DNA of 64,000 nt from a virus (IMGVR_UViG_3300027747_001395); one strand, 5' to 3'; counted from the stretch's first letter, positions 37,310-55,835 are shown. Program-made: numbers and translations. Notes: a model not told the origin generated them from the sequence alone.

Positions 37310-37350
37310 TTGACATTTTATGCGAAATGGTTTAGTCTAAGAATATACGG
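37310..37350 (+). promoter_or_regulatory. Promoter-family repeat (no downstream CDS, first of tandem pair)
   Basis: TTGACAttttatgcgaaatgGTTTAGTCTaag. Confidence 0.5.
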
Positions 37351-37394
37351 AATGCAGATTCTCCTCCGGGACGAAAAACTTTCCAAATTTAGTC

Positions 37395-37440
37395 GTTGAC
37401 ATTTTATATGAAATGGTATAGACTAAGAATATAGGGAATG
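37395..37440 (+). promoter_or_regulatory. Promoter-family repeat (second of tandem pair, leads into tRNA island)
   Basis: TTGACAttttatatgaaatgGTATAGACTaagaatataggg. Confidence 0.5.
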
Positions 37441-37731
37441 GAAACAAACCCTGTCTTTGACATTGTTGGGAAAAGAAAAATAACTTGGAGGTTATTAAGT
37501 GAGCCGGAGACGGCAAGACCGCAAGTCTAAAGCTTAATAACCTCTCAGTTAAGACTTATTAGATGAGTTCAGATAGGATGGGAAATGTGTCCCGATCTGC
37601 TGTAATTAGTTCTCTCACAAGGGATCTGAATTCTTCTAATAAGTTTTATCTGGTAGAGATAGCAAGGGCTAAACGTGGCTTTGGAAGCTTCGGATCGCAG
37701 GGGCGGTACCTGCCTACCAGACCAGTTTCAT

Positions 37732-37806
37732 GGCCCAGAACGCTAACGGCGGGCGGACTGATTTTCAATCAGTTGTAAGCGGGTTCAACTCCCGTCTGGG
37801 CTACCA
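37732..37806 (+). tRNA. tRNA-Glu (anticodon TTC)
   Basis: Acceptor ggcccag/ctgggct with CCA encoded. Anticodon stem actga/tcagt, loop ttTTCaa. T-arm gcggg-ttcaact-cccgt. Confidence 0.5.
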
Positions 37807-37811
37807 GTTAT

Positions 37812-37891
37812 GTATAGTAAAATCCTCTGTTGTGGGTTGACGCACTGTTCAAAGTCGTTTTAGGTTGGTTCAATTCCAGTACTATACACCA
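37812..37891 (+). tRNA. tRNA-like element (anticodon arm not resolvable)
   Basis: Acceptor gtatagt/actatac plus CCA and T-arm ttcaatt. The body is irregular. Confidence 0.3.
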
Positions 37892-37897
37892 ATTCAT

Positions 37898-37971
37898 GTG
37901 CGTGTCGTCTAACGGTAAGGCGCTCCCCTGATTAGGGAGTTATCGGAGTTCAAATCTTCGCATGCACACCA
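37898..37971 (+). tRNA. tRNA (anticodon GAT, Ile-like, unusual U37)
   Basis: Acceptor gtgcgtg/catgcac plus CCA. D-stem gtct/aggc. Anticodon stem ctccc/gggag, loop ctGATta. T-loop ttcaaat. Confidence 0.45.
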
Positions 37972-38078
37972 GAAATTCGTAGTAGACGGTCAGTACTGTG
38001 GAATATGCCAAAGAATGCAATGATCGGCATCACACAGTCAACATGGCTTGCATTTCATCTACTACGAACATAATATGC

Positions 38079-38160
38079 CCCGTTAGTCGGTTCGGTCTTC
38101 TAAGCCGCTATCCGTAACTGGATCTGAAAATACTGGTTCGAGTCCAGTACGGGGTACCAA
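38079..38160 (+). tRNA. Long tRNA-like element (type-II-like length, arms unresolved)
   Basis: Acceptor gccccgt/acggggt plus CCA. T-arm actgg-ttcgagt-ccagt. Confidence 0.3.
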
Positions 38161-38169
38161 AATTTAGTT

Positions 38170-38205
38170 GTTTACATTTATTCGGTTTTGGTATAGAGTT
38201 GAAAA
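38170..38205 (+). promoter_or_regulatory. Promoter-family repeat (variant TTTACA)
   Basis: TTTACAtttattcggttttgGTATAGAGTtg. Confidence 0.45.
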
Positions 38206-38730
38206 ATGGAAACACAACTTGAACATTTGATCGGTCGAGGTATGGACCCAACTAGGTATCCAATCTCGTATGATCCAGAGGAAGGTATCATCACCTTTCT
38301 TCTGTTTAACTATAATGGTGGTCTTGTTGGTTACCAGCAGTATAGACCAGATCAGGCTTCTAAACAAAAGAAGAATGATCCTAAGACTGGCAGGTATTAT
38401 ACATATCTCCCTAAAGATACTGACGGCGTGTTTGGACTTGATGTTCTTAATCATGCTGACAGGACTATTTATGTGGTTGAAGGTGTGTTTAAAGCAGCGG
38501 TTCTACATCGTCTAGGTTTTAATGCTCTTGCGGTTCTTACTTCGACACCTAAGAGGCTCAAGCCTTGGTTTCGAATTTTGCGACCGACATGGAATCTGGT
38601 TGCTATTGGTGATAATGATGATGCCGGTCAAAAACTGGTTAACATTGTCGGCCGAGGCTTTCAGTCTCCAGAAGATCTTGACGAAATGTCAGATGAGGAA
38701 ATTTTGGAACTTCTGAAACATAATGGTTGA
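38206..38730 (+). CDS. TOPRIM-domain protein
   Basis: TIYVVEGVFKAAVL (Toprim Glu) and WNLVAIGDNDDAGQK (DxD). Confidence 0.5.
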   Translation: METQLEHLIGRGMDPTRYPISYDPEEGIITFLLFNYNGGLVGYQQYRPDQASKQKKNDPKTGRYYTYLPKDTDGVFGLDVLNHADRTIYVVEGVFKAAVLHRLGFNALAVLTSTPKRLKPWFRILRPTWNLVAIGDNDDAGQKLVNIVGRGFQSPEDLDEMSDEEILELLKHNG

Positions 38731-38775
38731 CATTTATTCGGTTTCGTTGTAGACTAAACTATAAGGAATGGAGAT
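38727..38775 (+). promoter_or_regulatory. Promoter-family repeat
   Basis: Consensus copy. Confidence 0.55.
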
Positions 38776-38779
38776 CAAC

Positions 38780-38943
38780 ATGAATGTTTTTGTAGTCACT
38801 TATACCTCGGTAAATGGCGACACCGGTGACGAAAATGTCCGTGTATCTAAAGTCTTTGCATCAGAAGATGCAGCCAATATCTATTGCGAGGCTATTAAGT
38901 CTCGCTGGGGTTGGTATGAATATCAAGAATTTGAAGTAGAATA
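38780..38943 (+). CDS. Small hypothetical protein (54 aa)
   Basis: ATG after the conserved leader. Below the track cutoff. Confidence 0.4.
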
Positions 38944-39043
38944 AGTTTACTCCGCGGGTGTAGTGCACCGTAAGACGGCAGAATTAATGGCCTGGAGTTT
39001 AAAGACCTTACGGTGGTGTTACCAGGATAAACCGTCAGATTAT

Positions 39044-39117
39044 CTCCACGTTGCCGTCAGGGAAGGCTACCGGCTGTCTACCGGTAAAGGCGGGTTCGAG
39101 TCCCGTCGTGGGGGCCA
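39044..39117 (+). tRNA. tRNA-Asp (anticodon GTC)
   Basis: T-arm ggcgggttcgagtcccgtc identical to E. coli tRNA-Asp. Acceptor ctccacg/cgtgggg plus CCA. Anticodon stem accgg/ccggt, loop ctGTCta. Confidence 0.55.
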
Positions 39118-39377
39118 GTTTTCCGTTGGGTTCGATTCCCAGGGTATATAGATGGTCTTAGTTGAGGTTCGATTCCTCAATATATGCAACAAGCATGGTG
39201 GTGGACATTAGTTCTAGAGTTGTTACAGCAAACCAAAACGCTTAAACAATGGATGTCTTAGCGGACAAAAACAACTCTGTAGAAATTTAGTTTAAGGTTC
39301 CTTACCGCAACTCAAACAACTTTTATTGCAAAAGCCAAAGCGGAACCTGTAGAATTTGGAATGGTACAGCAACAAAC

Positions 39378-39450
39378 CTTATGGTAGCTCATCGGTAGAG
39401 CATCTGACTTCAACTCAGACGGAACGGGTTCAATTCCCGTACAACAAACC
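39378..39450 (+). tRNA. tRNA-like element with anticodon loop cuUCAac (would read UGA); acceptor stem not evident
   Basis: D-arm gctc-atcggtag-agc. Anticodon stem tctga/tcaga. T-arm acggg-ttcaatt-cccgt. No paired acceptor, no CCA. Confidence 0.3.
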
Positions 39451-40072
39451 CATTCCAGTTGTTTTTGGTCCTATGGAGTAATTAACCAGAGAAACCAGTC
39501 TCAAGGAACTGTCCCTCTAAGGAGTAATTAACCTTATGTTCAGCCCTTGCTTCGTTCATCTAGCTAGGCAGGATGCTCCCCCTCGCAGGAGTCACATGGG
39601 TTCGATTCCCATACGAAGGTTACGACTTTTAAGATGAGTTCTGTTTCGGTAGAATATAAAGCTGGGTGTGTGGTATCGCCGCTGAAATGACCTGCCCAGG
39701 AAGGTTCGAGTCCTCAAGGCGGCTTGGTATTCTTACAGAACTCTTCTTAACAGTTATGCCTCTATAGTTAAATAGTATAACAAGGACCTTGTAAGTCTTA
39801 GTCCAGGGAGCGTTACCTTGTAGGGGCACCAGAATTACCCATCAATGATAGTATGATGTAAAACCTATCGGTTTTTGTGTTGGTTTTTGACTTAATATAA
39901 TCAACCGGTCATGTTACCGACCTGATAGGGACAGCGCTCATTATGCTACAATAATGGGAAATCCTTAACAGGGTGTCTGGGCCGGACACTGTTGGTATAT
40001 TGTTGGTAAGCAATGTATCAGGTCGAAGTTTCCGTTATAAATAGGAGTGAACACAAACTAAGGAGGTTGTTC

Positions 40073-40231
40073 ATGACTAATTTTCTAGACGGTAAGAAAA
40101 CATACATCGTAGCTCTTGTTGCTGCAGGTTTTGCATTTGCACAGGCTATGGGTTATGTAGTTCCAGAATATGTTTATACTCTACTAGCGGCATCAGGTCT
40201 TGGTGCACTTAGAGTTGCAGTAACTAAGTAA
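40073..40231 (+). CDS. Small membrane protein (52 aa, 2 TM)
   Basis: Strong RBS aaggaggttgttcATG. Hydrophobic. Confidence 0.45.
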   Translation: MTNFLDGKKTYIVALVAAGFAFAQAMGYVVPEYVYTLLAASGLGALRVAVTK

Positions 40232-40240
40232 TAAATTAGA

Positions 40241-40316
40241 GGGCCCTTAGCTCATCTGGGAGAGCACTTGATTTGCATTCAAGAGGTGATCGGTTCGAGT
40301 CCGATAGGGTCCACCA
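40241..40316 (+). tRNA. tRNA-Ala (anticodon TGC)
   Basis: Clean cloverleaf. Acceptor gggccct/agggtcc plus CCA. D gctc/gagc. Anticodon stem cttga/tcaag, loop ttTGCat. T-loop ttcgagt. Confidence 0.8.
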
Positions 40317-40594
40317 ATAAAACAGCCAGTCACTCGACGATACTGGTACCTGACGGGGCATGGGACGGTATAACGTTGCGAAAGTAAAAAGCCGCTCCAC
40401 CAATTTGACCTGCTCGTGGGAGCTAGTGCACTAAGGCGGATTCGACTTCCGCAGGTCATCTTTCAATTAGGAAAAGTTTATGATCGAAGTAATTGTGCTC
40501 GTTCTAGCGGTATTGGCAATAGTAATTGCTAGTATCAACGGTATTCTCGATAGAGATGACAATACCGCAGGATGGATCTAAACATAACGTATTT

Positions 40595-40666
40595 GGGGAA
40601 GCTGTATGGGACAGCGTCTTGACTTGCAATCAGGAACGTGTGGGCTCGGTACCCATCTTCTCCACC
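40595..40666 (+). tRNA. tRNA-like (anticodon loop cuUGCaa; non-canonical T-loop)
   Basis: Acceptor ggggaag/cttctcc plus CCA. Anticodon stem cttga/tcagg. T-loop ctcggta. Confidence 0.35.
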
Positions 40667-40754
40667 AAGTTTAAATGTACATTCTTAGTAGTTAGTTGGT
40701 GAGGTAGCGGCTACACCAAGGCAATGATGAGAAAGAATATTGCGTGCATTTAAT

Positions 40755-40830
40755 GGATCTCTGGCGTAGCTGGTGTGCGCGTGCCCCTGAAGAGGGTGAG
40801 GTCGGGGTTCGATTCCTCGGGGATCCACCA
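40755..40830 (+). tRNA. tRNA-Phe (anticodon GAA)
   Basis: Acceptor ggatctc/gggatcc plus CCA. D gcgt/gcgc. Anticodon stem tgccc/gggtg, loop ctGAAga. T-arm cgggg-ttcgatt-cctcg. Confidence 0.55.
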
Positions 40831-40839
40831 TTTTATCCG

Positions 40840-40890
40840 TTGACATTTTTCCTTAGATGGTTTAGATTAAATCTATAAGGAAAGGAATCA
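40840..40890 (+). promoter_or_regulatory. Promoter-family repeat
   Basis: TTGACAtttttccttagatgGTTTAGATTaaatctataagg. Confidence 0.5.
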
Positions 40891-40892
40891 AC

Positions 40893-41081
40893 ATGCGAAA
40901 GACCTTCAATCAACCCATCAGCCCCAAATGGCCTGACTATGGTTGCAATGTCTATAAGAACGGCGACTTTATTGTTGCTCATCTGTATGAAAACTACAGT
41001 GGTTATGCAATGGCTGACGAGGTCATGTATCTTCGTCGCTTTGAATATCCTAGTTCTGAAGGATACACAATTGAATGGTAA
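40893..41081 (+). CDS. Hypothetical small protein
   Basis: ORF of 62 aa after the promoter repeat. Confidence 0.45.
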   Translation: MRKTFNQPISPKWPDYGCNVYKNGDFIVAHLYENYSGYAMADEVMYLRRFEYPSSEGYTIEW

Positions 41082-41091
41082 AGTTAAATAT

Positions 41092-41167
41092 GCCTGCGTA
41101 GCCCAATGGCAGAGGCAATGCGCTTAGAACGCATCCAGTGCGAGTTCGAGTCTCGCTGCAGGTACCA
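41092..41167 (+). tRNA. tRNA with anticodon TAG (Leu-like anticodon but type-I body)
   Basis: Acceptor gcctgcg/tgcaggt plus CCA. Anticodon stem atgcg/cgcat, loop cuUAGaa. T-arm gcgag-ttcgagt-ctcgc. Confidence 0.5.
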
Positions 41168-41174
41168 AGTTTAA

Positions 41175-41257
41175 GGGTCCCTAAAGCCGGTAGTTTCGGC
41201 AGTCGGTCTGTAAAACCGATCTCTTGGGGAGTGGAGCGTAACCACAGGGGCCCACCA
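41175..41257 (+). tRNA. tRNA-Tyr (anticodon GTA), type II
   Basis: Acceptor gggtccc/ggggccc plus CCA. D gccg/cggc. Anticodon stem tcggt/accga, loop ctGTAaa. Long variable arm. T-loop agcgtaa. Confidence 0.55.
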
Positions 41258-41266
41258 AATTTTAAT

Positions 41267-41340
41267 GCGGATATCGTATAATGGTATTATTACAGCCTTC
41301 CAAGCTGAAGACGCGGGTTCGATTCCCGCTATCCGCTCCA
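41267..41340 (+). tRNA. tRNA-Gly (anticodon TCC)
   Basis: Acceptor gcggata/tatccgc plus CCA. Anticodon loop cuUCCaa. T-arm gcggg-ttcgatt-cccgc. Confidence 0.65.
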
Positions 41341-41366
41341 AAGATTGAGACGAAAGTCTCTACGTT

Positions 41367-41445
41367 TTGCGCGGTAGAGGAGTCCGGCCGTCCTCGTCTG
41401 TCTCATAAGCAGAAAATCGTGGGTTCAAATCCCATCTGCGCTTCC
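41367..41445 (+). tRNA. tRNA-Met/Ile2 (anticodon CAT)
   Basis: D gagg/cctc. Anticodon stem tctgt/gcaga, loop ctCATaa. T-arm gtggg-ttcaaat-cccat. Acceptor 6/7 paired plus CCA. Confidence 0.5.
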
Positions 41446-41548
41446 AATCTGATATGGATACACTGCGCCTAGTCGCTGTCGCAATTCCATACCTTTATTG
41501 CCGATACGTGAGGTGATAGCCATATAAATATGTTTACTTAATATCTCA

Positions 41549-42115
41549 ATGTGGTATAAGAAAATTATGAAGAGTACAATTGTTTATATCCATGGTTTTG
41601 GTAGTGGTCCTAATGGTACCACGGCTCAAGATGTCAAAAAGGCCTTTCCTAGTGAAAAGTTCCTTTGCCCTCAGCTTGACCACTCTGCCGATCCAGATAC
41701 TATCAAGGCACAACTTGATAAGCTGGCAAAAACACTAGGTAAGCACGACGATGTGATTATTGTCGGTTCCAGTGCTGGTGGTTTCTGGGCTGATTATCTC
41801 GGTGCGGTTTATGGTTTCAAGACTGTTCTTGTAAATCCTTCGTTGCGACCTGCCACTAATTATAAGAAATACAATTTGCCTTCAGCATATTATGATAAAT
41901 ATGCGGATATGCAAGAATGGATCAAACATCATGCTCGTCATCACATGGTTGCATTTGCTGGTGATAAAGATGATGTGGTTCCACTCGATCATGTAAAGAC
42001 TCATTATTCAAATCCTATTATGCTAAAAGGTGAAGGTCATAGACTTAATGATATGACTCCGGTTATTAAAATGGTACGTAGTATGATTGGCAACTTCCCG
42101 GAGCACAATCAATGA
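41549..42115 (+). CDS. Alpha/beta-hydrolase esterase (YqiA-like)
   Basis: VYIHGFGSG...IIVGSSAGG (GxSxG nucleophile elbow). ATG 41567 is an alternative start. Confidence 0.5.
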   Translation: MWYKKIMKSTIVYIHGFGSGPNGTTAQDVKKAFPSEKFLCPQLDHSADPDTIKAQLDKLAKTLGKHDDVIIVGSSAGGFWADYLGAVYGFKTVLVNPSLRPATNYKKYNLPSAYYDKYADMQEWIKHHARHHMVAFAGDKDDVVPLDHVKTHYSNPIMLKGEGHRLNDMTPVIKMVRSMIGNFPEHNQ

Positions 42116-42687
42116 TTAACTTTAAAGACTTTTTAGCTGAAGGTTTTTCAATCCTTCATCCAGAACATGAAGAAGAAAAAAAGAAACATGCTGAACATGT
42201 CTACAATATGGTTCAACATGCTTATAAATCGATTGGTGGTATTCACGGCTCCGGCTTTAAAGACCATCACGATATGGTTAAGAATATTCCAATCTGGAAG
42301 CTTCACAAAGATCATGAAGGCAAGGTAAGAGCTGTTGGTCTTTATAAAGTCAAGAATGGTAAGACAAAACGTGTTGCCGTTGCAACTGATAACACTGGTC
42401 AGGGTAAGAAAGGTCTAAAGCATATCGTCAAGAATGATCTGTCGTCTAGACGTGCTTTTGTTGAAACCTCTGGTCCGTCACTTTCTTTTCATAAGAAAGT
42501 TCATGGTGATCTTACACAGCATGCTTTGACTCATGATCAAGTACGTAAACATTTGCCAGATGATGAAATTCGTCCGGCACCACATGATGATCCAGAAGTT
42601 AAGCGCCACCCAGAGTTGAAGAAACATTTCTATCAACGAAAGATTGGTGGTGAATGGCACACCAAGGTCGCGCTGGGCCATCACTAA
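42112..42687 (+). CDS. His-rich hypothetical protein
   Basis: ORF of 191 aa overlapping the upstream stop (ATGA). Confidence 0.5.
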   Translation: MINFKDFLAEGFSILHPEHEEEKKKHAEHVYNMVQHAYKSIGGIHGSGFKDHHDMVKNIPIWKLHKDHEGKVRAVGLYKVKNGKTKRVAVATDNTGQGKKGLKHIVKNDLSSRRAFVETSGPSLSFHKKVHGDLTQHALTHDQVRKHLPDDEIRPAPHDDPEVKRHPELKKHFYQRKIGGEWHTKVALGHH

Positions 42688-50524: not shown

Positions 50525-50601
50525 GGACCTGTCTTAATAATAGGCTAATAGCGGGACTCTTAATCCTTGCGATCCGGGTTCGAGACCCGGCAGGTCCTCC
50601 A
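50525..50601 (+). tRNA. tRNA (anticodon CTT, Lys-like)
   Basis: Acceptor ggacctg/caggtcc perfect plus CCA. Anticodon loop cuCTTaa on a 4-bp stem. T-arm ccggg-ttcgaga-cccgg. Confidence 0.45.
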
Positions 50602-50738
50602 GTTAAACCGAGTTAGGCGGATATTAGAGCTCGTACTAGTCAACAATAGGATACGTATCCATTCCGTTTTGTTGTGTTCATAGTACTGCCGTGTGGGACA
50701 AAACTCGACCCACAGGGAATACGATAATTCCCATCTTT

Positions 50739-50815
50739 GTGACGGCGTGGTGTAAACGGTGAACACGCGGGTTTGTGGTACCCGAGTTAGGAGTTCGAAT
50801 CTCCTCGTCGCGACC
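50739..50815 (+). tRNA. tRNA-His-like (anticodon GTG), imperfect acceptor
   Basis: D gtgt/acac. Anticodon stem cgggt/acccg, loop ttGTGgt. T-arm aggag-ttcgaat-ctcct. CCA present. Confidence 0.45.
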
Positions 50816-50832
50816 AATTAGAAGGATTTAAA

Positions 50833-51249
50833 ATGCAATATAAAATGTACTGCATCTTTGCACTTGAATCTGTAAAGAAGATGAATGGAATTCGAGGTAA
50901 GATGTGTACTCAAGCAGGACACGCTTACCTCCATGCGTTTTGGGACGCTAACTATGCTGCTAATGTAGAACCGTTTACTACGGAAGAAGTATTAATTGCA
51001 AAACGCAAAGTAGATCAAGCACAGGCGTACTATAATAGTGACCGTGCATACAAGATTACGTTGATCGTAGATACTGTGGATGAACTCAAGACTCTACAAG
51101 AAAAGTACAAGAACATCTGCGGTACTAGTCTTGTAACTGATGCTGGGTTCACAGTATTCGATGAACCTACGACTACTTGCTTGGGTCTAGGTCCAATTGC
51201 AGAAGATAAAGTTGGTCCGGATCTTAGATCCCTTAAGACATTCACATAA
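50833..51249 (+). CDS. Peptidyl-tRNA hydrolase, PTH2 family
   Basis: GKMCTQAGHAYL (cf. GKxxAQCxHA) and LIVDT...DAGFTVFDEPTTTCLGLGP (cf. DAGxT.....T.laiGP). Confidence 0.6.
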   Translation: MQYKMYCIFALESVKKMNGIRGKMCTQAGHAYLHAFWDANYAANVEPFTTEEVLIAKRKVDQAQAYYNSDRAYKITLIVDTVDELKTLQEKYKNICGTSLVTDAGFTVFDEPTTTCLGLGPIAEDKVGPDLRSLKTFT

Positions 51250-51308
51250 ATAGAATTGGCGTTGATCCAGAGACTTAATGCGGGAAACGGACCGCGCCGA
51301 CAAATTTT

Positions 51309-51401
51309 GGAGTAGATAAGCGAGGCGGCCCTCGTCTTGGTTTTGAAAACCAAAGGTACCACTAAGACTGGTATTCGGATCGACACCGAACTGCTCCTCC
51401 A
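51309..51401 (+). tRNA. tRNA-Ser (anticodon TGA), type II
   Basis: Acceptor ggagtag/ctgctcc plus CCA. Anticodon stem ttggt/accaa, loop ttTGAaa. Long variable arm. T-stem ttcgg/ccgaa. Confidence 0.6.
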
Positions 51402-51409
51402 CTTTTTGG

Positions 51410-51462
51410 TTGACATATTTCTCGGTATGGATTATACATAATCTATAGGGAATGGAGTTTAA
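51410..51462 (+). promoter_or_regulatory. Promoter-family repeat (variant)
   Basis: TTGACAtatttctcggtatgGATTATACAtaatctataggg. Confidence 0.5.
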
Positions 51463-51463
51463 C

Positions 51464-51625
51464 ATGGTTTTGGTTGTTTACCGTTGCTATGACAACAAGG
51501 AAGAAGAGTCCATGTTTCTTATGGACTCTGAAGATGATGCAAAGGACTGGCTTGATACTAAGCCTGCTCGCCCTCTTGGTTTTGAGGACCGTGACGGTTA
51601 TTACTTCTTTGAAGCTTATCCGTAA
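51464..51625 (+). CDS. Small acidic hypothetical protein (53 aa)
   Basis: ATG directly after the conserved leader. Preferred over the TTG-initiated 102-aa track ORF in another frame. Confidence 0.4.
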   Translation: MVLVVYRCYDNKEEESMFLMDSEDDAKDWLDTKPARPLGFEDRDGYYFFEAYP

Positions 51626-51650
51626 GTTTAAGAAAAGTTTGGAGATCGAC

Positions 51651-51782
51651 ATGAAGCCGCGTAATCCAGTTGCAGGTAATGCTTGGAAATACAATGTTCC
51701 GAAGGTTGTGCCTGATAAGAAAACCACTTATCAGCGGCGCCGTCTTCGCAAGTTTGAATATGATCGCGTTTATGACGAATAA
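51651..51782 (+). CDS. Small basic hypothetical protein (43 aa)
   Basis: RBS ttggagatcgacATG. Confidence 0.4.
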   Translation: MKPRNPVAGNAWKYNVPKVVPDKKTTYQRRRLRKFEYDRVYDE

Positions 51783-51785
51783 TGC

Positions 51786-51863
51786 CAGTGGGTCAGGGAC
51801 CGGTCGGCTCTCATAAGGCTGACTAGGTGGGATCGTTACCCACTTCTGGCACCAAAAGGATTT
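51786..51863 (+). tRNA. tRNA-like element (loop cuCATaa flanked by direct not inverted repeat; T-loop atcgtta)
   Basis: Acceptor gccagtg/ttctggc (6/7) plus CCA. T-arm gtggg-atcgtta-cccac. The anticodon stem does not pair. Confidence 0.3.
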
Positions 51864-51867
51864 TGTT

Positions 51868-52077
51868 ATGACTGATTTGATTGCTGCAGTTCGTGAACAT
51901 GCACTTGCTAACTATGAGAAAGATGGTTGGGACTATTTGGTTGAGTGTTGGAGTGATGAGGATATTGCAAAAGAGATTGGAAGATCTAGAACAACTCAGG
52001 GTGCTATCTCAAAATGTCGCAGAGTTGTAAAACTTCTAGATGAACGTAGACAAGAAGTTCGAGCAGAAATTTGGTAA
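51868..52077 (+). CDS. Hypothetical protein
   Basis: RBS aaaaggattttgttATG. 69 aa. Confidence 0.45.
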   Translation: MTDLIAAVREHALANYEKDGWDYLVECWSDEDIAKEIGRSRTTQGAISKCRRVVKLLDERRQEVRAEIW

Positions 52078-52086
52078 TTAAGAATA

Positions 52087-52163
52087 TGGACGATTAGCAC
52101 AGTTGGTAGTTGCACGGGTCTTTTAAACCTGAGGTCCTGGGTTCGAACCCCAGATTGTCCACC
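52087..52163 (+). tRNA. tRNA-Lys (anticodon TTT), second copy
   Basis: Acceptor ggacgat/attgtcc plus CCA. Anticodon stem cgggt/acctg, loop ctTTTaa. T-arm ctggg-ttcgaac-cccag. Confidence 0.6.
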
Positions 52164-52184
52164 ACTTTACTTTTGGAGAATATT

Positions 52185-52394
52185 ATGGATTCTGATGCTT
52201 TTGCAAAGTTTGTCGGCTCAATTATAGCTAATATCATTCTAGGTTGTATTATGTCATTCCCTATAATGTGGCTATGGAATGATTCACTTGTTCCTGCTGT
52301 GACATGGGCTAAGGCTATTGACTGGTCATCAGCATTTGGTCTATGGATACTTGTTGGTATTTTCACCGGTGCTGTGCATACTACGTCTAAATAA
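52185..52394 (+). CDS. Small membrane protein (70 aa)
   Basis: RBS ttggagaatattATG. Three hydrophobic segments. The track start at 52110 overlaps the tRNA. Confidence 0.45.
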   Translation: MDSDAFAKFVGSIIANIILGCIMSFPIMWLWNDSLVPAVTWAKAIDWSSAFGLWILVGIFTGAVHTTSK

Positions 52395-52398
52395 GTCT

Positions 52399-52490
52399 GG
52401 AGTGTGAACCAGCCGAGGTGCTGGCACCGCTTGGAAAGCGGTTGGGACCTCTAAAACAGGTCTGGATGGCGGGAATCCCGCGCTCCTCCA
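52399..52490 (+). tRNA. tRNA-Ser (anticodon GGA), type II, non-canonical T-loop GGCGGGA
   Basis: Acceptor ggagtgt/gcgctcc plus CCA. Anticodon stem accgc/gcggt, loop ttGGAaa. Variable-arm hairpin gacct/aggtc. Confidence 0.55.
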
Positions 52491-52516
52491 TTATGAAAGA
52501 AAATTGACATGTGGAT

Positions 52517-52662
52517 TGTATTACAAATTTTACTTCTTATTCTTAATCTTGGTCTAGGATTTAATAACATTGCTAATAATATAAATCCATATATAATTGC
52601 TACATATTTCTTTGCCGCTGGATTTGCAGGAATGGGTGCTATTGCAATGGCACCAAAATAAT
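52517..52662 (+). CDS. Small membrane protein (48 aa)
   Basis: Hydrophobic ORF with a weak RBS. Competes with an antisense 71-aa ORF. Confidence 0.3.
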
Positions 52663-52772
52663 ACACGGAAGGTCAAGCAGTCGGGTGATTGTCACGGTTT
52701 GCTAAACCAGTGGGGCTATAGTGATATAGTCTGAGGATCGGGACCTCGGCCTTCCTCCACTGAAAGAATTTT

Positions 52773-52910
52773 ATGTCTAAGAAGAAAAAAGAAGAAACAA
52801 CAACACTTATGAAGTGTGCTGTTTGTACTTCTTGCTATAGATATAAAAACAGTAGAAGTGATAGATGCCATTTTGGTGGACCTTATTATGGATATGTTCA
52901 AGTAGAATAA
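52773..52910 (+). CDS. Small Cys-rich (Zn-finger-like) protein (45 aa)
   Basis: CAVCTSC...C.H pattern. Weak RBS. Confidence 0.3.
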   Translation: MSKKKKEETTTLMKCAVCTSCYRYKNSRSDRCHFGGPYYGYVQVE

Positions 52911-52912
52911 TT

Positions 52913-52987
52913 GCCCACATAGTTGTAACGGCAGAACGGGTCCTTGGTAAGGATCAAGTCGGAGTTCGATTCTCCGTGAGGGCACCA
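52913..52987 (+). tRNA. tRNA-Thr (anticodon GGT)
   Basis: Acceptor gcccaca/tgagggc (6/7) plus CCA. Anticodon stem ggtcc/ggatc, loop ttGGTaa. T-arm cggag-ttcgatt-ctccg. Confidence 0.65.
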
Positions 52988-53003
52988 GATATAAATAGAT
53001 TAT

Positions 53004-53082
53004 GCCTGTGTAGCCCAAATGGAAGAAGGCGAGGGGTTCAAAACCGCTTACAGTGTGAGTTCGAGTCTCACTACAGGCACCA
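53004..53082 (+). tRNA. tRNA (anticodon uncertain: CAA or TCA), long D region
   Basis: Acceptor gcctgtg/tacaggc plus CCA. T-arm gtgag-ttcgagt-ctcac. Candidate anticodon loop ttCAAaa. Confidence 0.4.
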
Positions 53083-53089
53083 AGTTAAT

Positions 53090-53166
53090 GCCCGGATACG
53101 CAAATTGGCAAAGCGATTAGGTCGAGAGCCTAATGTCTGAGGGTTCAAGTCCCTCTCCTGGCACCA
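53090..53166 (+). tRNA. tRNA (anticodon loop tcGAGag, C33; identity uncertain)
   Basis: Acceptor gcccgga/tcctggc (6/7) plus CCA. Anticodon stem ttagg/cctaa. T-arm gaggg-ttcaagt-ccctc. Confidence 0.45.
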
Positions 53167-53175
53167 GAATTATAT

Positions 53176-53250
53176 GTCTCTCTAGTTCACTAGTTAGAAT
53201 CCCAGATCGACATTCTGGAGAAGTAGGAGCGTAACCTACGAGAGATACCA
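53176..53250 (+). tRNA. tRNA-like (anticodon loop tcGACat; T-loop agcgtaa)
   Basis: Acceptor gtctctc/gagagat plus CCA. Anticodon stem ccaga/tctgg. T-arm gtagg-agcgtaa-cctac. Confidence 0.4.
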
Positions 53251-53334
53251 CTGATGACTAAAGTTTGGAGATTAAAAATGAACTACATGGAAAGCGATAT
53301 CTTCTAAGCTAACTTACTAGCTAGGAGATAAAAC

Positions 53335-53802
53335 ATGAACTACCTCTATCCTCTCATTGCTATCCACATCGATGGCAAACCTATTCTTCTTTATTCCAAC
53401 GATGCACTTGCTTCCTTCATTGGTAAGTACGGTCAGTTCACTGAACATCACGTTGATTACTACTATGATATTAGTTCTTTTATGTATCGTAGAAAGACCA
53501 ACGGCTGGATTGTTCGTGATGATCGTGGCAAAATTGTTAAGTACGACGATGTAGTTTCCTTTGGAACTAACTGGAAGTACTACAACAAACGGCAGGCTGA
53601 AATCCGAGGAATTGCTGCAAAGGGACTTCCTATTCCTCGTACTGGCACTAGCAAGGCTGGTTGGAAGATGAACCACGTTGCTAAGAAGAACAGCGGTTCT
53701 GGTCACCGCAATCGGAACCGTGCTCTTGCCATCTATGATGCTAAGGAATATGATGTTAAGAACAACGTCGGTAACAGAGTAATTCCCTACGAACATTGGT
53801 GA
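53335..53802 (+). CDS. Hypothetical protein
   Basis: RBS gctaggagataaaacATG. 155 aa. Confidence 0.5.
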   Translation: MNYLYPLIAIHIDGKPILLYSNDALASFIGKYGQFTEHHVDYYYDISSFMYRRKTNGWIVRDDRGKIVKYDDVVSFGTNWKYYNKRQAEIRGIAAKGLPIPRTGTSKAGWKMNHVAKKNSGSGHRNRNRALAIYDAKEYDVKNNVGNRVIPYEHW

Positions 53803-53806
53803 TAAG

Positions 53807-53975
53807 ATGAGTGACGAACATAGAATTAAACAATATGAATTTTGGTCTAAAGAGTCTAAAAAGTATCTGAATCTCTATGTTCAGAAATCCGTACTTGAAA
53901 AACTTCCACAATCTGAACTTGATGTGTATAGATATGCAATGTGGTATTGTCAAGAACAGACTAGAAAATGCTATT
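53807..53975 (+). CDS. Small hypothetical protein (55 aa)
   Basis: RBS ggtgataagATG. Confidence 0.4.
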
Positions 53976-53979
53976 AATC

Positions 53980-54071
53980 GGAGAGTAAACTAGCCGAGGT
54001 GCTAGTGCCGTTTCGAAAACGGCTGGGACCCCTAAGACGGGTCTGGGTGGCGGGAACCCTGCTCTCCTCCA
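53980..54071 (+). tRNA. tRNA-Ser (anticodon CGA), type II, T-loop GGCGGGA
   Basis: Paralog of the 52399 tRNA. Acceptor ggagagt/gctctcc plus CCA. Anticodon stem gccgt/acggc, loop ttCGAaa. Variable-arm hairpin gaccc/gggtc. Confidence 0.6.
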
Positions 54072-54089
54072 ACTTTTGGAGTTTATATT

Positions 54090-54584
54090 ATGAATGATAT
54101 TCTACCAGGTTATCTAGTCAAGATTAAGTCTTGGGAAAATGATTTAGGCAATTATAATACAACTGAGTTTAGTGGACTTACTGAGTCTGCCGCTCGTGTT
54201 TTGATTTCTATTGCTAAACTTTTCTATAGTGAAAATGATGGTAGCTTTATAAATGGTAAGTGGAAAAAGCTAAGAGAAAACGCATTCGGTAATTCTGATA
54301 TTGACCGGACGAGAGATGCTCTTACACAAGCTATCACTCAAATTGTTGATAGCGCTCGTAGACTCAACTATGATATTCCTAAAGAATGGGATTTTATGAA
54401 TCCTGACTATGCAGACTTTGTAAATGATATTCGAAATAGTCTCAGTGATTTTTATCAAAAATCTATTTATGATCTCATTGGTATCTGGTGCGAAGGAGAA
54501 CTATATAGAGTGTTTGATAGCTTTGAAGTCTATCTAGTACCAGAAAGTTCAATTAAGAATGTTACCGCTGATTTTGGCGGATAA
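54090..54584 (+). CDS. Hypothetical protein
   Basis: RBS ttggagtttatattATG. 164 aa. Confidence 0.5.
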   Translation: MNDILPGYLVKIKSWENDLGNYNTTEFSGLTESAARVLISIAKLFYSENDGSFINGKWKKLRENAFGNSDIDRTRDALTQAITQIVDSARRLNYDIPKEWDFMNPDYADFVNDIRNSLSDFYQKSIYDLIGIWCEGELYRVFDSFEVYLVPESSIKNVTADFGG

Positions 54585-54595
54585 ATAGAATTCTT

Positions 54596-54681
54596 GGGGG
54601 CGTGACCAGATGGCAAATTGGTACAGTCGGCTGGTTTAAACCCAGTGGTTTTTGAGGGTTCGAGTCCCTTCGCCCCTACCA
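54596..54681 (+). tRNA. tRNA-Leu-like (anticodon TAA), extra nucleotides between D and anticodon arms
   Basis: Acceptor gggggcg/cgcccct plus CCA. D acca/tggt. Anticodon stem gctgg/ccagt, loop ttTAAac. T-arm gaggg-ttcgagt-ccctt. Confidence 0.45.
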
Positions 54682-54690
54682 ACTTAGTTG

Positions 54691-54736
54691 TTTACATAAT
54701 TCACGTTTTATGGTAGACTAAACCATAAGGAGTGTT
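54691..54736 (+). promoter_or_regulatory. Promoter-family repeat (variant TTTACA)
   Basis: TTTACAtaattcacgttttatgGTAGACTaaaccataaggag. Confidence 0.5.
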
Positions 54737-54737
54737 T

Positions 54738-55835
54738 ATGATCTTTTCCGAAAATCTTAAAATCCTGGGGACTGCGTTCCGCCAATATGGCTTCGAAATT
54801 CGAGTCGTTGGTGGTGCAGTCCGCGATAGCATTCTCAAGATGGAACCTAAGGACATTGATCTGTGTGTCAATGCTACACCTCAGGAGATGATTGAGATTG
54901 TAGAGGATATGGATTTCTCTTACATTCCTACTGGTCTGCAACACGGCACGATTACGATCGTTGTGAATGGTGAGCAGTTCGAGGTTACGACTCTGCGGAT
55001 TGATACCGAGACTGATGGTCGGCATGCAGTCATTGCATATACGCGTGACTTTGAGGCTGATGCAGCACGCCGTGATTTGACTATCAATGCTATGTCGATG
55101 GACTTTGATGGTAAGATCTATGACTACTTCGGCGGTCAGGAAGATCTTCTGAACTATCAAGTTCGGTTCGTTGGTGATGCTGATGCTCGTGTCAAAGAAG
55201 ACTATCTGCGCATTCTGCGGTACTTCCGGTTCATGGCTCGGTTCGGCAACATCAATCAGTGTCTGGATGAGGTCAAAGATATCTGCACCAAGGAAAATCT
55301 GGACGGTCTTAAGACTGTGTCGGTTGAGCGCTACTGGTTGGAAATGCAAAAGCTTGTCACCAGTCTTTATGCAAATGAAGTTCTGGATTGCATGTACTAT
55401 CATGGAGTTCTGAAAGCTCTGGGTCTCGGCAAACGGCGCCACTGCACTATCAAACAGTCTGCCGTTGGTGCTCTGGGTACTATGCTGAGTGTTGGTACTC
55501 TGGATTCTTTTCTCTTTAAGTGGAAACTCTCTGCTGATGAAGCTAAGCATCTTCGCTGGATTGTAGAAAATTGCTACAAGCGGTGGGATTGGAGGGAACA
55601 GTTGGTTGATGGAGTTCCACGTCAGTGGGTTCTGGATCTTTCTTGGATTGAGCGTGATCAGTTCATGCCAGTTCGAGTTGCTAATTGGGAAATCCCTGTG
55701 TTCCCTGTGACGGGTCAAGATCTACTGGATCGTGGTATGAAGCAAGGTCGGGAACTAGGTGACGCTCTGAAGAACCTGCGAGACGAATGGAAGAAGTCTG
55801 ACTTCACACTGACTAAGAATGATCTGCTGGCTTAA
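54738..55835 (+). CDS. cca: tRNA nucleotidyltransferase (CCA-adding enzyme)
   Basis: Class II NTase head motif VVGGAVRDSIL...KDIDL plus C-terminal HD-less tail-domain features. 365 aa. Confidence 0.8.
   Translation: MIFSENLKILGTAFRQYGFEIRVVGGAVRDSILKMEPKDIDLCVNATPQEMIEIVEDMDFSYIPTGLQHGTITIVVNGEQFEVTTLRIDTETDGRHAVIAYTRDFEADAARRDLTINAMSMDFDGKIYDYFGGQEDLLNYQVRFVGDADARVKEDYLRILRYFRFMARFGNINQCLDEVKDICTKENLDGLKTVSVERYWLEMQKLVTSLYANEVLDCMYYHGVLKALGLGKRRHCTIKQSAVGALGTMLSVGTLDSFLFKWKLSADEAKHLRWIVENCYKRWDWREQLVDGVPRQWVLDLSWIERDQFMPVRVANWEIPVFPVTGQDLLDRGMKQGRELGDALKNLRDEWKKSDFTLTKNDLLA

Follow-up and report, generated by a model that had tools for sequence, protein, structure and literature searches.

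Transfer RNA (tRNA) genes are concentrated in a 17-kb island at 37650-54681 of a 64,000-nt stretch of DNA from the virus IMGVR_UViG_3300027747_001395 (this whole stretch is referred to as the window). A total of 28 standard and 13 atypical tRNA genes, all on the + strand, were identified in the island, which also encodes a PTH2 peptidyl-tRNA hydrolase and is followed by genes for a CCA-adding enzyme, a cREC protein and a two-piece transfer-messenger RNA (tmRNA). We interpret it, with a probability of roughly 70%, as an early-expressed translation-support island of an uncultivated T4-like phage, which would supply tRNAs, repair their CCA ends, hydrolyse peptidyl-tRNA and rescue ribosomes. The island had been proposed by a model that read the DNA alone (the sequence-only reading) and placed it within 37310-54740; position 37310 proved to be the first promoter-like repeat, and the gene of the CCA enzyme starts at 54732.

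Identification of tRNA genes

The tRNA searches covered the whole window on both strands. ARAGORN with default settings and Rfam at the gathering score were taken as the standard tRNA callers. ARAGORN returned 26 tRNAs from 37732 to 53250, none of them on the - strand, and a single one beyond, at 60287, and Rfam matches above the gathering score added Thr(TGT) at 39758 and Lys(CTT) at 50525 (the latter in the permissive Rfam mode), which gave 28 standard calls. Atypical tRNA-like genes were sought in several ways: by ARAGORN at relaxed settings, by folding, by analysis of repeats, by scanning for cloverleaves and with R1, a covariance model trained on tRNAs of the island. R1 gives rough E-values, and a match to one of its training members is expected from the way the model was made. 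All R1 matches at E<0.01 were located on the + strand within 37650-54681 or at the tRNA at 60287, and save for the latter none was found in the other 46 kb of the window or on the - strand; likewise, ARAGORN -ps90 made zero calls outside the island except at 60287. These numbers agree with the claim of the sequence-only reading, which had put the island at about 30 canonical and about 10 degenerate tRNAs, and the standard calls alone (26 by default ARAGORN, 28 with Rfam) are not far fewer than it had claimed.

The anticodon is readable in nine of the 13 atypical genes (37650, 40595, 41175, 43183, 51309, 51784, 52399, 53980 and 54596), and the remaining four (37812, 38077, 39549 and 47230) have no clear anticodon arm. 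Since the standard finders miss about a third of the island tRNA genes, the tRNA counts of phages in metagenomes are probably too low. The 41 genes are listed below; the anticodon entries for 38077 and 54596, like the 7/7 acceptor of 47230, come from manual reading of the sequence.

37650-37724, +: atypical tRNA-Pro(TGG), T-loop GGCGGTA, 3' ACCA; minimum free energy (MFE) cloverleaf, acceptor 7/7, T stem 5/5; ARAGORN only at -ps80; R1 training member
37732-37806, +: tRNA-Glu(TTC); ARAGORN, Rfam 50.9 bits
37812-37891, +: degenerate tRNA-like element with 7-bp acceptor, canonical T arm and ACCA, anticodon arm unclear; R1 23.6 bits, E=6.7e-5; Rfam tRNA-Sec model 28.7 bits
37898-37971, +: tRNA-Ile(GAT), copy 1; ARAGORN, Rfam
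38077-38159, +: degenerate tRNA-like element of 83 nt, acceptor 7/7, canonical T arm, ACCA, anticodon unclear; R1 36.7 bits, E=6e-9; folding z-score -3.45
39044-39117, +: tRNA-Asp(GTC); ARAGORN, Rfam
39379-39450, +: tRNA body with anticodon TCA (opal-suppressor type), no CCA, maybe a pseudogene; ARAGORN 'SeC'; Rfam 48.7 bits; R1 model positions 8-65 only; acceptor 3/7
39549-39620, +: tRNA-like element with 8-nt anticodon loop, no CCA; ARAGORN -ps90; R1 18.8 bits, E=0.002; best match, at 75% identity, is the odd-looped tRNA-like call L090:1665-1737
39758-39831, +: tRNA-Thr(TGT), T-loop AGCGTTA; Rfam 49 bits; ARAGORN -ps90
40241-40316, +: tRNA-Ala(TGC); ARAGORN, Rfam
40595-40667, +: second, atypical tRNA-Ala(TGC), G3:U70, T-loop CTCGGTA, ACCA; R1 32.5 bits, E=1.2e-7; ARAGORN -ps90; Rfam 23.7 bits
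40755-40830, +: tRNA-Phe(GAA); ARAGORN, Rfam
41092-41167, +: tRNA-Leu(TAG), 76 nt, class-I-like, without long extra arm; ARAGORN, Rfam
41175-41257, +: atypical tRNA-Tyr(GTA), extra arm, T-loop AGCGTAA; MFE cloverleaf; R1 20.8 bits, E=5e-4
41267-41340, +: tRNA-Gly(TCC); ARAGORN, Rfam
41368-41446, +: tRNA-Met(CAT); ARAGORN, Rfam
43183-43276, +: tRNA(TAT) of 94 nt with long extra arm, A73 and CCA, overlapping the 3' end of the HNH open reading frame (ORF); cloverleaf scan, acceptor 7/7, T stem 5/5
43291-43366, +: tRNA-Arg(ACG); ARAGORN, Rfam
44215-44289, +: tRNA-Trp(CCA); ARAGORN, Rfam
45924-46000, +: tRNA-Val(TAC); ARAGORN; R1 64.4 bits (training member)
46408-46484, +: tRNA-Asn(GTT); ARAGORN, Rfam
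46540-46616, +: tRNA-Lys(TTT), copy 1; ARAGORN, Rfam
46679-46754, +: tRNA-His(GTG), copy 1; ARAGORN, Rfam
46803-46877, +: tRNA-Ile(GAT), copy 2; ARAGORN, Rfam
46887-46962, +: tRNA-Cys(GCA); ARAGORN, Rfam
47149-47223, +: tRNA-Gly(GCC); ARAGORN, Rfam
47230-47297, +: degenerate tRNA-like element of 68 nt, acceptor 7/7 (mis-registered by the automatic parse), canonical T-loop, ACCA, anticodon arm unclear; R1 26.3 bits, E=1e-5; repeat family D7
47305-47378, +: tRNA-Gln(CTG); ARAGORN, Rfam
48833-48904, +: tRNA-Gln(TTG), no encoded CCA; ARAGORN, Rfam; R1 43.2 bits
50525-50601, +: tRNA-Lys(CTT); Rfam 31.5 bits; ARAGORN -ps90
50741-50816, +: tRNA-His(GTG), copy 2; ARAGORN, Rfam
51309-51401, +: atypical tRNA-Ser(TGA), long extra arm, T-loop ATCGACA, every stem fully paired; ARAGORN -ps90; MFE cloverleaf, z-score -2.9
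51784-51854, +: atypical, Met-like tRNA-like element, CTCATAA loop with anticodon CAT, shortened D arm, T-loop ATCGTTA, ACCA; R1 31.8 bits, E=2e-7
52088-52164, +: tRNA-Lys(TTT), copy 2; ARAGORN, Rfam
52399-52490, +: atypical tRNA-Ser(GGA), long extra arm, T-loop GGCGGGA, missed by ARAGORN and Rfam; repeat family D11; cloverleaf scan, acceptor 7/7; best matches are Ser tRNAs of relatives
52913-52987, +: tRNA-Thr(GGT); ARAGORN, Rfam
53004-53082, +: tRNA-Leu(CAA), 79 nt, class-I-like; ARAGORN, Rfam
53090-53166, +: tRNA-Leu(GAG), 77 nt, class-I-like; ARAGORN, Rfam
53176-53250, +: tRNA-Val(GAC), T-loop AGCGTAA, as in the L092 orthologue; ARAGORN, Rfam
53980-54071, +: atypical tRNA-Ser(CGA), 82%-identical paralogue of 52399-52490; repeat family D11; cloverleaf scan
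54596-54681, +: atypical, probably tRNA-Leu(TAA), anticodon arm GCTGG-TTTAAAC-CCAGT, extra bases between D and anticodon arms, ACCA; R1 39.9 bits, E=6e-10; ARAGORN -ps90; 72% identical to Leu(TAA) of L087

Decoding capacity and the atypical tRNAs

The genes of the window have a third-position GC of 31%. Of their codons, the standard tRNAs can read about 78%, and inclusion of the atypical ones raises this share to about 90% or more. The atypical set supplies exactly the amino acids that are absent from the standard set, namely Pro, Tyr, Ser and Ile-AUA, and in most of its members the 7-bp acceptor stem is perfect, the T and anticodon stems are paired and the 3' end is CCA. The 3' CCA is encoded in 38 of the 41 island tRNA genes, and also in 17 of 17, 27 of 28 and 29 of 31 tRNA genes of the related loci L084, L093 and L090, respectively (loci are given by number throughout). 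The relative L084 has a syntenic island with 16 tRNAs in matching order and shares with the window the DUF458 gene (73% identity) and the glycosyltransferase-methyltransferase gene (61% identity). It carries canonical Tyr, Ser(TGA), Pro and Lys(CTT) genes, among which Tyr and Ser(TGA), not Pro, are placed comparably to the atypical copies of the window; its tRNA-Tyr sits between Lys(CTT) and Gly(TCC), inside the same Leu(TAG)-to-Gly(TCC) stretch. These canonical counterparts at comparable positions favour the view that the atypical Tyr and Ser(TGA) copies are real genes. In comparisons with the tRNAs of relatives, 62-75% identity was obtained for the top three matches of every atypical query, and since such pairwise identities are too uniform, orthology is based on synteny and on the alignment of tRNA(UAU).

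The tRNA(TAT) gene at 43183 belongs to a widespread phage family. The loop of its extra arm is the invariant CCAGATTAG of that family, and alignment with four phage orthologues revealed compensatory changes at 19 of the 24 pairs; the loop is invariant as the extra-arm stem covaries, and it contains GAU, the usual Ile anticodon. The same loop was present in all six long tRNA(TAT) genes found for unrelated reasons and in none of the three short ones, and 90 of 120 IMG/VR pattern matches fell inside ARAGORN Ile(TAT) calls of 88-96 nt. The long-arm family comprises at least 80 distinct IMG/VR sequences (survey L097-L216) and was also seen in L002, L012, L090, L092 and L093. A UAU anticodon combined with an extra arm has precedents in nematode tRNAs and in allo-tRNAs (PMC3333845, PMC7609411), and no description of a long-arm phage tRNA(UAU) family was found in the literature searched. 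With this family, non-standard tRNA identity could be put to the test in viruses.

Departures from the usual tRNA form were not confined to the atypical set. Bacterial tRNA-Leu normally bears a long extra arm; the three standard Leu tRNAs of the island (41092, 53004 and 53090) are 76-79 nt long and have none. Short Leu tRNAs also occur in L092 and L012, and Leu tRNAs of 84-88 nt in L087, L089, L090 and L093. T-loops that depart from TTCRA (AGCGTAA, AGCGTTA, GGCGGGA, GGCGGTA, ATCGACA, ATCGTTA and CTCGGTA) were recorded at 39758, 41175, 53176, 37650, 52399, 53980, 51309, 51784 and 40595; AGCGTAA is shared with the Val(GAC) of L092, and ATCG-type loops recur in L084, L092 and L012. The segment 39118-39760, in which isolated T-arm-like fragments (39127, 39162 and 39702) stand beside the TCA tRNA (39379) and the 39549 element, gives the impression of a region where tRNA copies are decaying or unconventional.

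CCA-adding enzyme, PTH2 and cREC

Three proteins encoded in or just beyond the island are assigned to the upkeep of tRNAs:

50833-51249, +: PTH2 peptidyl-tRNA hydrolase; PF01981 51.5 bits (cut-off 23), E=1.4e-13, profile positions 15-114 of 115
54732-55835, +: class II tRNA nucleotidyltransferase of the CCA-adding type, 367 aa; PF01743 PolyA_pol head, E=7e-32
56825-57205, +: cREC protein, directly upstream of the ligase gene; PF20274, E=1.6e-19

The first two had been named in the sequence-only reading, with the CCA-adding enzyme at the 3' boundary, and both identifications held; cREC had escaped that reading. The CCA enzyme shows the motifs GGAVRD at residue 27, DID at 41 and EDYLR at 156; its best NCBIfam match was the CCA tRNA nucleotidyltransferase NF009814 (186 bits, cut-off 290), followed by PcnB at 106 bits. 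In Pfam and NCBIfam searches the head region alone matched, and no HD domain was found. Because 38 of the 41 tRNA genes already encode CCA, as do those of relatives, the enzyme is better understood as serving end repair than maturation. The NCBIfam Pth2 matches of PTH2 fall below the equivalog cut-off; PTH2 genes are also found inside the tRNA islands of L087 (66% identity), L089, L093 and L006.

The cREC domain has been described as a divergent receiver domain, predicted to open 2',3'-cyclic phosphates on RNA or ADP-ribose cyclic phosphates (PMC7824862, PMC9503650). Among 31 relatives of the window's cREC, the acidic residues D7, D50 and D52 are invariant and D8 is conserved in at least 90%. 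An AlphaFold2 model reached a pLDDT of 90.5, and its top PDB folds were almost all response-regulator REC domains, with weak similarity (E>=0.014, TM about 0.45-0.5). Loci of cREC relatives (35-58% identity) were fetched with up to 10 kb on either side of the gene: all eight metagenomic loci hold 3-30 tRNAs, with PTH2 nearby in three. In L087 and L090, cREC starts within about 45 bp of the end of a tRNA-Ser(TGA), and in L089 an ARAGORN Ser(TGA) call overlaps the called cREC start. For comparison, 80 loci centred on relatives of the ligase were inspected; only 10 of them hold at least 3 tRNAs, and none contains cREC. It follows from these two surveys that cREC travels with tRNA genes and tRNA-end enzymes and not with the ligase. 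Aeromonas phage CC2 has, in this order, genes for a tRNA nucleotidyltransferase, an HD phosphohydrolase, a further protein and cREC. The predicted activity of cREC keeps alive a narrower idea of end healing, in which no ligase would be needed, and its presence inside tRNA arrays suggests a concrete trial substrate, i.e. tRNAs with damaged 3' ends. As side observations, a DUF2828/DUF7788 protein (474-476 aa) recurs at the downstream island edge in L089, L092 and L093, 7-9 kb past cREC, and NADAR-domain genes come after cREC in L092 and L093.

tmRNA, suppressor-type tRNAs and stop codons

Downstream of the ligase gene, a tmRNA and one further tRNA were identified, neither of which had been noticed in the sequence-only reading:

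59025-59349, +: two-piece (permuted) alphaproteobacterial-type tmRNA; RF01849 89.8 bits (threshold 50), RF04321 75.3 bits (threshold 47)
60287-60364, +: canonical tRNA with anticodon CTA (amber-suppressor type), ACCA end; ARAGORN, Rfam 63.1 bits

The tag was read from the sequence as ASNDNDIVDYALAA, and its frame ends with ALAA and a stop. ARAGORN misses this tmRNA, yet calls the counterpart in L004, which differs from it and has the tag ANDNNAYGAFALAA. Through a perfect 95-nt direct repeat (58928-59022 and 59106-59200), the acceptor piece's end, the segment between the two pieces and the beginning of the coding piece are each present twice, and an unpermuted GGGGATG...CATCTCC-ACCA unit arises at 58994-59120; the 3' hairpin of the tmRNA is also duplicated (59309-59356 and 59520-59567, 81% identity). 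An identical contig from Logan stops just before the 95-nt repeat.

The tRNA(CTA) is absent from the aligned and otherwise collinear L004 and present in L091 and L092. As suppressor-type tRNAs were present, recoding of stop codons was tested. The 62 curated + strand genes end in TAA (36), TGA (25) and TAG (1). Treating TAG or TGA as a sense codon neither joined nor extended any gene of the window sensibly; TGA serves as a normal stop, ending 25 of the 62 genes, and L091 and L092 show no depletion of TAG stops.

Promoter-like cassettes

The island is opened by a pair of promoter-like repeats:

37310-37424, +: two tandem sigma-70-like cassettes, TTGACA-N17-TAGTCT/TAGACT, putative promoters; repeat families D1, D2, D4 and D6; promoter scan

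The cassette consists of TTGACA-N17-TAGACT followed by a conserved leader and a ribosome-binding site. Further + strand cassettes start at 38171, 38727, 40840, 43739, 44774, 45337, 50144, 51410, 54691, 55866, 57215, 58867 and 59922. A regular-expression scan of the window gave 31 cassettes on the + strand and 4 on the - strand, 14 of the total being in or at the island; + strand sites span 7182 to 62543, with the consensus (G)TTGACATTTTT-N-TGGTAGACTAAACTATAAGGAATGGAGAT..ATG. The shared leader yields false 'MEINM' and 'GRLNYKEWRLTM' N-termini in naive ORF calls. Three tandem copies of the 20-nt unit TATACAGATAATGATCCAAT were noted at 43428-43493, in the 413-nt gap between tRNA-Arg and the next cassette.

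Phage lineage and probable host

By its gene content (primase, ThyX, ribonucleotide reductase (RNR) subunits, T4-type RNase H, PhoH, a PD-(D/E)XK nuclease, a nicotinamide mononucleotide adenylyltransferase (NMNAT)-Nudix fusion with nicotinamide phosphoribosyltransferase (NAMPT), and ligase), the window represents an early arm of a T4-like phage, for replication and nucleotide metabolism. The phage origin is indicated by PHROG and Pfam matches of the replication and nucleotide-metabolism genes and by the nearest relatives, which are genes of phages and contigs of IMG/VR. A megablast search of the whole island against 50,697 phage records gave a single match, one tRNA-Gly, and so no close cultured relative is recognized; the tRNA-Gly(TCC) is 92% identical to a tRNA-Gly of Sinorhizobium phage Phosso. 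The best protein matches came from phages of Caulobacter, Agrobacterium, Sinorhizobium, Brevundimonas and Rhodobacter. Because the tmRNA is of the alpha type, a GapR-like protein is encoded and the nearest cultured relatives are phages of Alphaproteobacteria, the host is probably an alphaproteobacterium. Among uncultured relatives, L004 carries a ligase gene (71% identity) with a permuted tmRNA after it, L092 resembles the window in tRNA order and has short Leu tRNAs, a long tRNA(TAT) and a tRNA(CTA), and L095 is a Logan contig of 7.5 kb (run SRR5754830) identical to the window. A single-sequence search of IMG/VR with the CCA enzyme gave no match.

The adjacent ligase and the distant 2H enzyme

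In the sequence-only reading, a 2H phosphoesterase upstream and an ATP-dependent ligase downstream of the island were joined with the CCA enzyme and PTH2 into an RNA end-healing and sealing set. The two proteins are:

8371-8916: Acb1 (2H superfamily); PF23474 115 bits (cut-off 27), E=2.9e-33, profile positions 2-142 of 144
57273-58484: ATP-dependent DNA ligase of the T4 gp30 type; PF01068 DNA_ligase_A_M, E=1.8e-11

The ligase is indeed ATP-dependent (motif I KLDG at K119; weak OB_2 match, E=0.004), but a role in RNA sealing is not supported, as it matched DNA-ligase families and structures only: the best NCBIfam match is a DNA ligase, and all ten PDB sequence matches are DNA ligases. Matches to it were found in 1095 phage records, the best 25 of which are mostly annotated as DNA ligase and otherwise as hypothetical or unannotated. 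Among cultured phages, its nearest relative (42.5% identity) is annotated as 'DNA ligase (ATP)' in the T4-like Caulobacter phage Cr30, where the gene order is sliding clamp, clamp loader, RegA, exonuclease, PhoH and ligase, and no tRNA is annotated in the 41 kb around it. Judged from these matches, the adjacent ligase would be the phage's replicative DNA ligase and lie outside the tRNA toolkit. A functional tie between the ligase and cREC was rejected, as the two are never adjacent in the 80 ligase-centred loci. They lie 2.2 kb apart in phage DLP_6, and their closeness there and in the window is taken as shared T4-like gene order, not coupling.

The protein at 8371 does belong to the 2H superfamily, but a part in tRNA repair was not upheld. 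Its match to the generic 2_5_RNA_ligase2 family (24 bits) is below the cut-off of that family, and a YAcAr/SLOG gene follows directly (the pair occupies 8371-9310), 29 kb from the island. By its profile match the enzyme is Acb1, an anti-CBASS nuclease outside the tRNA toolkit, and Acb1 and SLOG probably form a two-gene unit against nucleotide signals. ORFs of the window scanned with Pfam, PHROGs and NCBIfam contained no RNA ligase domain (Rnl1 PF09511, Rnl2 PF09414, RtcB PF01139), and neither a polynucleotide kinase (PNK) nor HAD motif I was found in them; the only Walker-A proteins were PhoH and an AAA protein at 26515. Two proteins without Pfam matches were considered as hidden RNA ligases and rejected: that of 341 aa is the DNA primase of the phage, and that of 359 aa falls in a PHROG without assigned function. 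In the relatives L090, L091 and L093, RtcB, Rnl2 with PNKP, or Rnl1 are carried at the edges of the tRNA islands. The claimed healing and sealing set is thus not supported in the window, in which no RNA ligase, kinase or HAD phosphatase was found, the ligase matches DNA ligases and the 2H protein is Acb1. What stands of the statement that the phage both supplies tRNAs and repairs tRNA damage is the near-complete tRNA set with the CCA enzyme and PTH2, without the healing and sealing part.

Proposed function and alternative explanations

In the translation-support island proposed here, sigma-70-type promoters would drive co-oriented transcripts in which tRNAs and small ORFs are mixed, early and by the host RNA polymerase, and host RNases would then release about 40 tRNAs. 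With roughly 80-90% or more of its AT-rich codons covered by these tRNAs, the phage would be much less dependent on the host tRNA supply in translation. The class II CCA-adding enzyme would most likely rebuild damaged 3' ends and not mature new tRNAs, PTH2 would recycle peptidyl-tRNA dropped from ribosomes, and the two-piece tmRNA would rescue stalled ribosomes. The sole candidate for end healing is cREC, predicted to open 2',3'-cyclic phosphate ends before CCA is added again. HNH, GIY-YIG and other small genes would be passengers, either mobile or unrelated, to which the island owes its mosaic character. The selective benefit may lie in codon matching in a GC-rich host, in independence from host tRNA loss or in escape from tRNA-targeting defence.

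Several points weigh against this interpretation. The four elements with unclear anticodon arms (37812, 38077, 39549 and 47230) and the TCA tRNA with its broken acceptor may be pseudogenes. Expression, processing and aminoacylation of the island tRNAs are presumed from their sequences, and codon compensation was judged from the genes of the phage. Given 186 bits against a cut-off of 290, the nucleotidyltransferase may have A-adding or poly(A) activity. The predicted fold of cREC matches REC domains weakly (E>=0.014), the loci with cREC in an island belong to one related phage lineage and reflect a conserved neighbourhood, not independent recurrence, and the cREC domain is experimentally uncharacterised (PMC9503650). 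An RNA ligase or Pnkp could also be encoded elsewhere in the genome beyond the 64 kb, as at the island edges of L090, L091 and L093.

Full repair of broken tRNAs, in which the island, the 2H enzyme and the ligase would heal, seal and rebuild the CCA ends of tRNAs cut by PrrC, RloC or VapC in the manner of T4 Pnkp/Rnl1, is very unlikely. It draws on the presence of the CCA-adding enzyme, PTH2 and the predicted cyclic-phosphate enzyme cREC, on the position of cREC directly upstream of the ligase, on the RNA ligases near the tRNA islands of relatives and on the link of cREC and 2H domains with RNA ligases in phages (PMC7824862), but it conflicts with the DNA-ligase matches and the gp30-like position of the Cr30 ligase, with cREC genes of relatives that lie in tRNA islands away from such a ligase and are never adjacent to it in the 80 loci, with the identity of the 2H protein (Acb1 with its SLOG partner, 29 kb away) and with the lack of a 5'-kinase, 3'-phosphatase or RNA-ligase domain in the 64 kb. 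An ATP-dependent ligase without a 5'-kinase cannot seal the 5'-OH ends left by PrrC-type nucleases, as is known from the biochemistry of T4 Pnkp/Rnl1. A counter-defence by substitution, in which altered tRNAs replace host tRNAs destroyed by PARIS, retron PtuAB, PrrC or Schlafen-like enzymes and the codon match is secondary, is a possible main function, if a doubtful one. Substitution of this kind has been shown experimentally for T5-like phages (PMC10264068, PMC11555353, PMC11464382), and it is consistent with the structurally different duplicates of the same anticodon (two each of Ile-GAT, His-GTG, Lys-TTT and Ala-TGC), with the many tRNAs whose non-canonical elbows or arm lengths could escape recognition, and with counter-defence neighbours such as Acb1 and the NAD-salvage pair NMNAT-Nudix and NAMPT. 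The tRNA set is, however, nearly complete and not aimed at a few targets, and it follows the AT-rich codon use of the phage. Both tRNA-Lys(UUU) copies retain the standard CUUUUAA loop, so there is no sign of escape by loop mutation for the classic PrrC target.

Two further proposals were considered. The 'degenerate' elements, including tRNA(UAU), might be deliberate, working, unorthodox tRNAs, with the loop CAGAUUA as a second synthetase site or a redirector of charging and with cREC and the CCA enzyme maintaining 3' ends without an RNA ligase; we regard this as rather unlikely. Quite unlikely, too, is that the island is largely an accretion zone, in which recombination at repeated cassettes has gathered tRNAs, decayed copies and homing endonucleases and the toolkit has come together by chance. 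Its mosaic content argues for accretion, as L084 lacks, between Gln(TTG) and Ser(TGA), a 2.4-kb block with GIY-YIG, GapR, Lys(CTT), His and PTH2 genes, and so do the cluster of T-arm fragments and the broken-acceptor tRNA at 39118-39760, the 14 near-identical promoter cassettes and the CCA enzyme of Atu_ph07, Phosso and CcrBL9, for which linkage with a tRNA array was sought and none found. Against accretion, most atypical elements are fully paired with CCA ends, and together they fill exactly the gaps of the standard set (Pro, Tyr, Ser and Ile-AUA); in tRNA(UAU), 19 of the 24 pairs have changed in a compensatory way; and PTH2, cREC and DUF458 recur in the islands of phages whose proteins share only about 40-70% identity. 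The translation-support function remains our preferred explanation, and the island represents a clean, unusually complete case in which a near-full decoding set of the phage's own is combined with tRNA-end and ribosome-rescue functions, in a lineage, the T4-like phages of Alphaproteobacteria, about which little is known.

Other genes of the island and its surroundings

The remaining protein genes among the tRNAs are as follows:

38206-38730, +: stand-alone TOPRIM/primase-core protein, 174 aa; phrog_849 DNA primase, E=1.7e-48; EG and DxD motifs
41549-42115, +: UPF0227/YqiA-like alpha/beta hydrolase; Pfam E=1e-19; NCBIfam YqiA and YcfP matches below the curated cut-off
42112-42687, +: 191-aa protein encoded from a start that overlaps the YqiA-like stop; without match in Pfam, PHROG or PDB
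42762-43226, +: HNH (His-Me finger) homing-endonuclease-like protein; PHROG HNH families, E=3e-7 to 4e-5; weak Pfam match
44307-44750, +: PF04308 (DUF458/YkuK) RNase-H-like protein; Pfam E=2.5e-24; phrog_11311
44815-45153, +: phrog_21015 protein; PHROG match
46159-46392, +: DUF4031 protein; Pfam E=1.4e-10
47549-48829, +: fusion of Glycosyltransferase-25 (GT25) and Methyltransf_24; Pfam; same island position in L084
48969-49649, +: GIY-YIG/NUMOD3 homing endonuclease; Pfam; site empty in L084, whose 42%-identical copy is elsewhere
49661-49909, +: GapR-like DNA-binding protein; PF10073, E=2.6e-30
51474-51782, +: DUF7230 small protein, true start probably internal; Pfam; called as a 43-aa gene in L095
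53335-53802, +: 155-aa protein; 41%-identical relative inside the tRNA island of L087
54090-54584, +: phrog_2290 protein; PHROG match

The TOPRIM protein, the YqiA-like esterase, the HNH and GIY-YIG endonucleases, the GT25-methyltransferase fusion and the GapR-like DNA binder had all been recognized in the sequence-only reading, and the family matches listed above confirm each of them. A full gp61-like primase is encoded separately at 7248-8273 and has only the catalytic motif in common with the TOPRIM protein; the idea that the latter is a recent copy of the phage primase was rejected (BLASTP E=0.059). No relative of the HNH gene was found in the related loci examined. The PF04308, DUF4031 and DUF7230 genes had not been listed in that reading. 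The PF04308 gene comes after tRNA-Trp in both the window and L084, and likewise in L092 with one ORF between. By tblastn, the DUF4031 gene has a relative at most 12 bp from a tRNA in L011 and, in L053, one that is about 1.3 kb away from a tRNA. PDB sequence searches with island proteins of no assigned family gave nothing useful.

Just upstream of the island, the NMNAT-Nudix fusion and NAMPT (32739-33833 and 35872-37242) constitute a nicotinamide adenine dinucleotide (NAD) salvage pair, which is also found near the ligase relative in five IMG/VR loci (L041, L047, L048, L051 and L057). A weak macro-domain ORF (35097-35579) and a Band_7/SPFH protein (31598-32422) were noted in the same part of the window. 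An S-adenosylmethionine decarboxylase-like protein (PF02675) is encoded at 15332-15832, and the same family occurs near cREC in L090 and L094. At the far end, a long + strand ORF (62655-64000) exits the window and is hence unlisted by ORF tools; this region has 80% DNA identity to L004:3738-5213.

Comparison with known systems

In T4, eight tRNAs are encoded, and tRNA-Lys cleaved by PrrC is repaired by Pnkp and the RNA ligase Rnl1. The island resembles T4 in its co-oriented early tRNAs mixed with small ORFs and a GIY-YIG (Seg-type) endonuclease, and in having a gp30-type ligase, RNase H, RNR and PhoH in the same arm; it differs in its about 40 tRNAs, and Pnkp and Rnl1 were not found in the window. 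To our knowledge, T4 has no CCA-adding enzyme, PTH2 or tmRNA. With Cr30, phiCbK-like, Atu_ph07 and Phosso phages the window shares an alphaproteobacterial theme and the closest cultured ligase (Cr30, 42.5%) and CCA enzymes (Atu_ph07, 39%; CcrBL9, 37%); unlike in the window, the CCA enzyme of Atu_ph07, Phosso and CcrBL9 is not beside a tRNA array, and there is no nucleotide similarity to these phages beyond the one tRNA-Gly.

Islands of this kind are already known: gene sets in which tens of tRNAs are combined with a CCA-adding enzyme, PTH2, cREC or 2H domains and NAD-salvage genes have been reported from large phages and understood as countering host attack on translation (PMC7824862; PMC9503650). 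The parts list is the same as in the jumbo and large phages of Iyer et al. (PMC7824862, PMC9503650), but no RNA ligase, PNK or HAD phosphatase was found in the window, its 2H protein is Acb1, and its cREC lies in or beside the tRNA array and not beside an RNA ligase. The less ordinary features are the tRNAs missed by the finders, the short Leu tRNAs, the non-canonical T-loops and the long-arm tRNA(TAT). As in T5-type phages (PMC10264068, PMC11555353, PMC11464382), a large tRNA repertoire could replace host tRNAs destroyed by defence nucleases; anticodon-loop escape mutations are not evident in the Lys(UUU) copies of the window. A cellular parallel is provided by the NCBIfam entry NF008137, named 'multifunctional CCA addition/repair protein'. 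In the multifunctional CCA enzyme of Escherichia coli, a C-terminal HD domain couples clean-up by cyclic phosphodiesterase and phosphatase activities with the re-addition of CCA. The phage enzyme is without the HD domain, and with the predicted activity of cREC the phage could do the same in trans, by cREC and the CCA-adding enzyme acting together.

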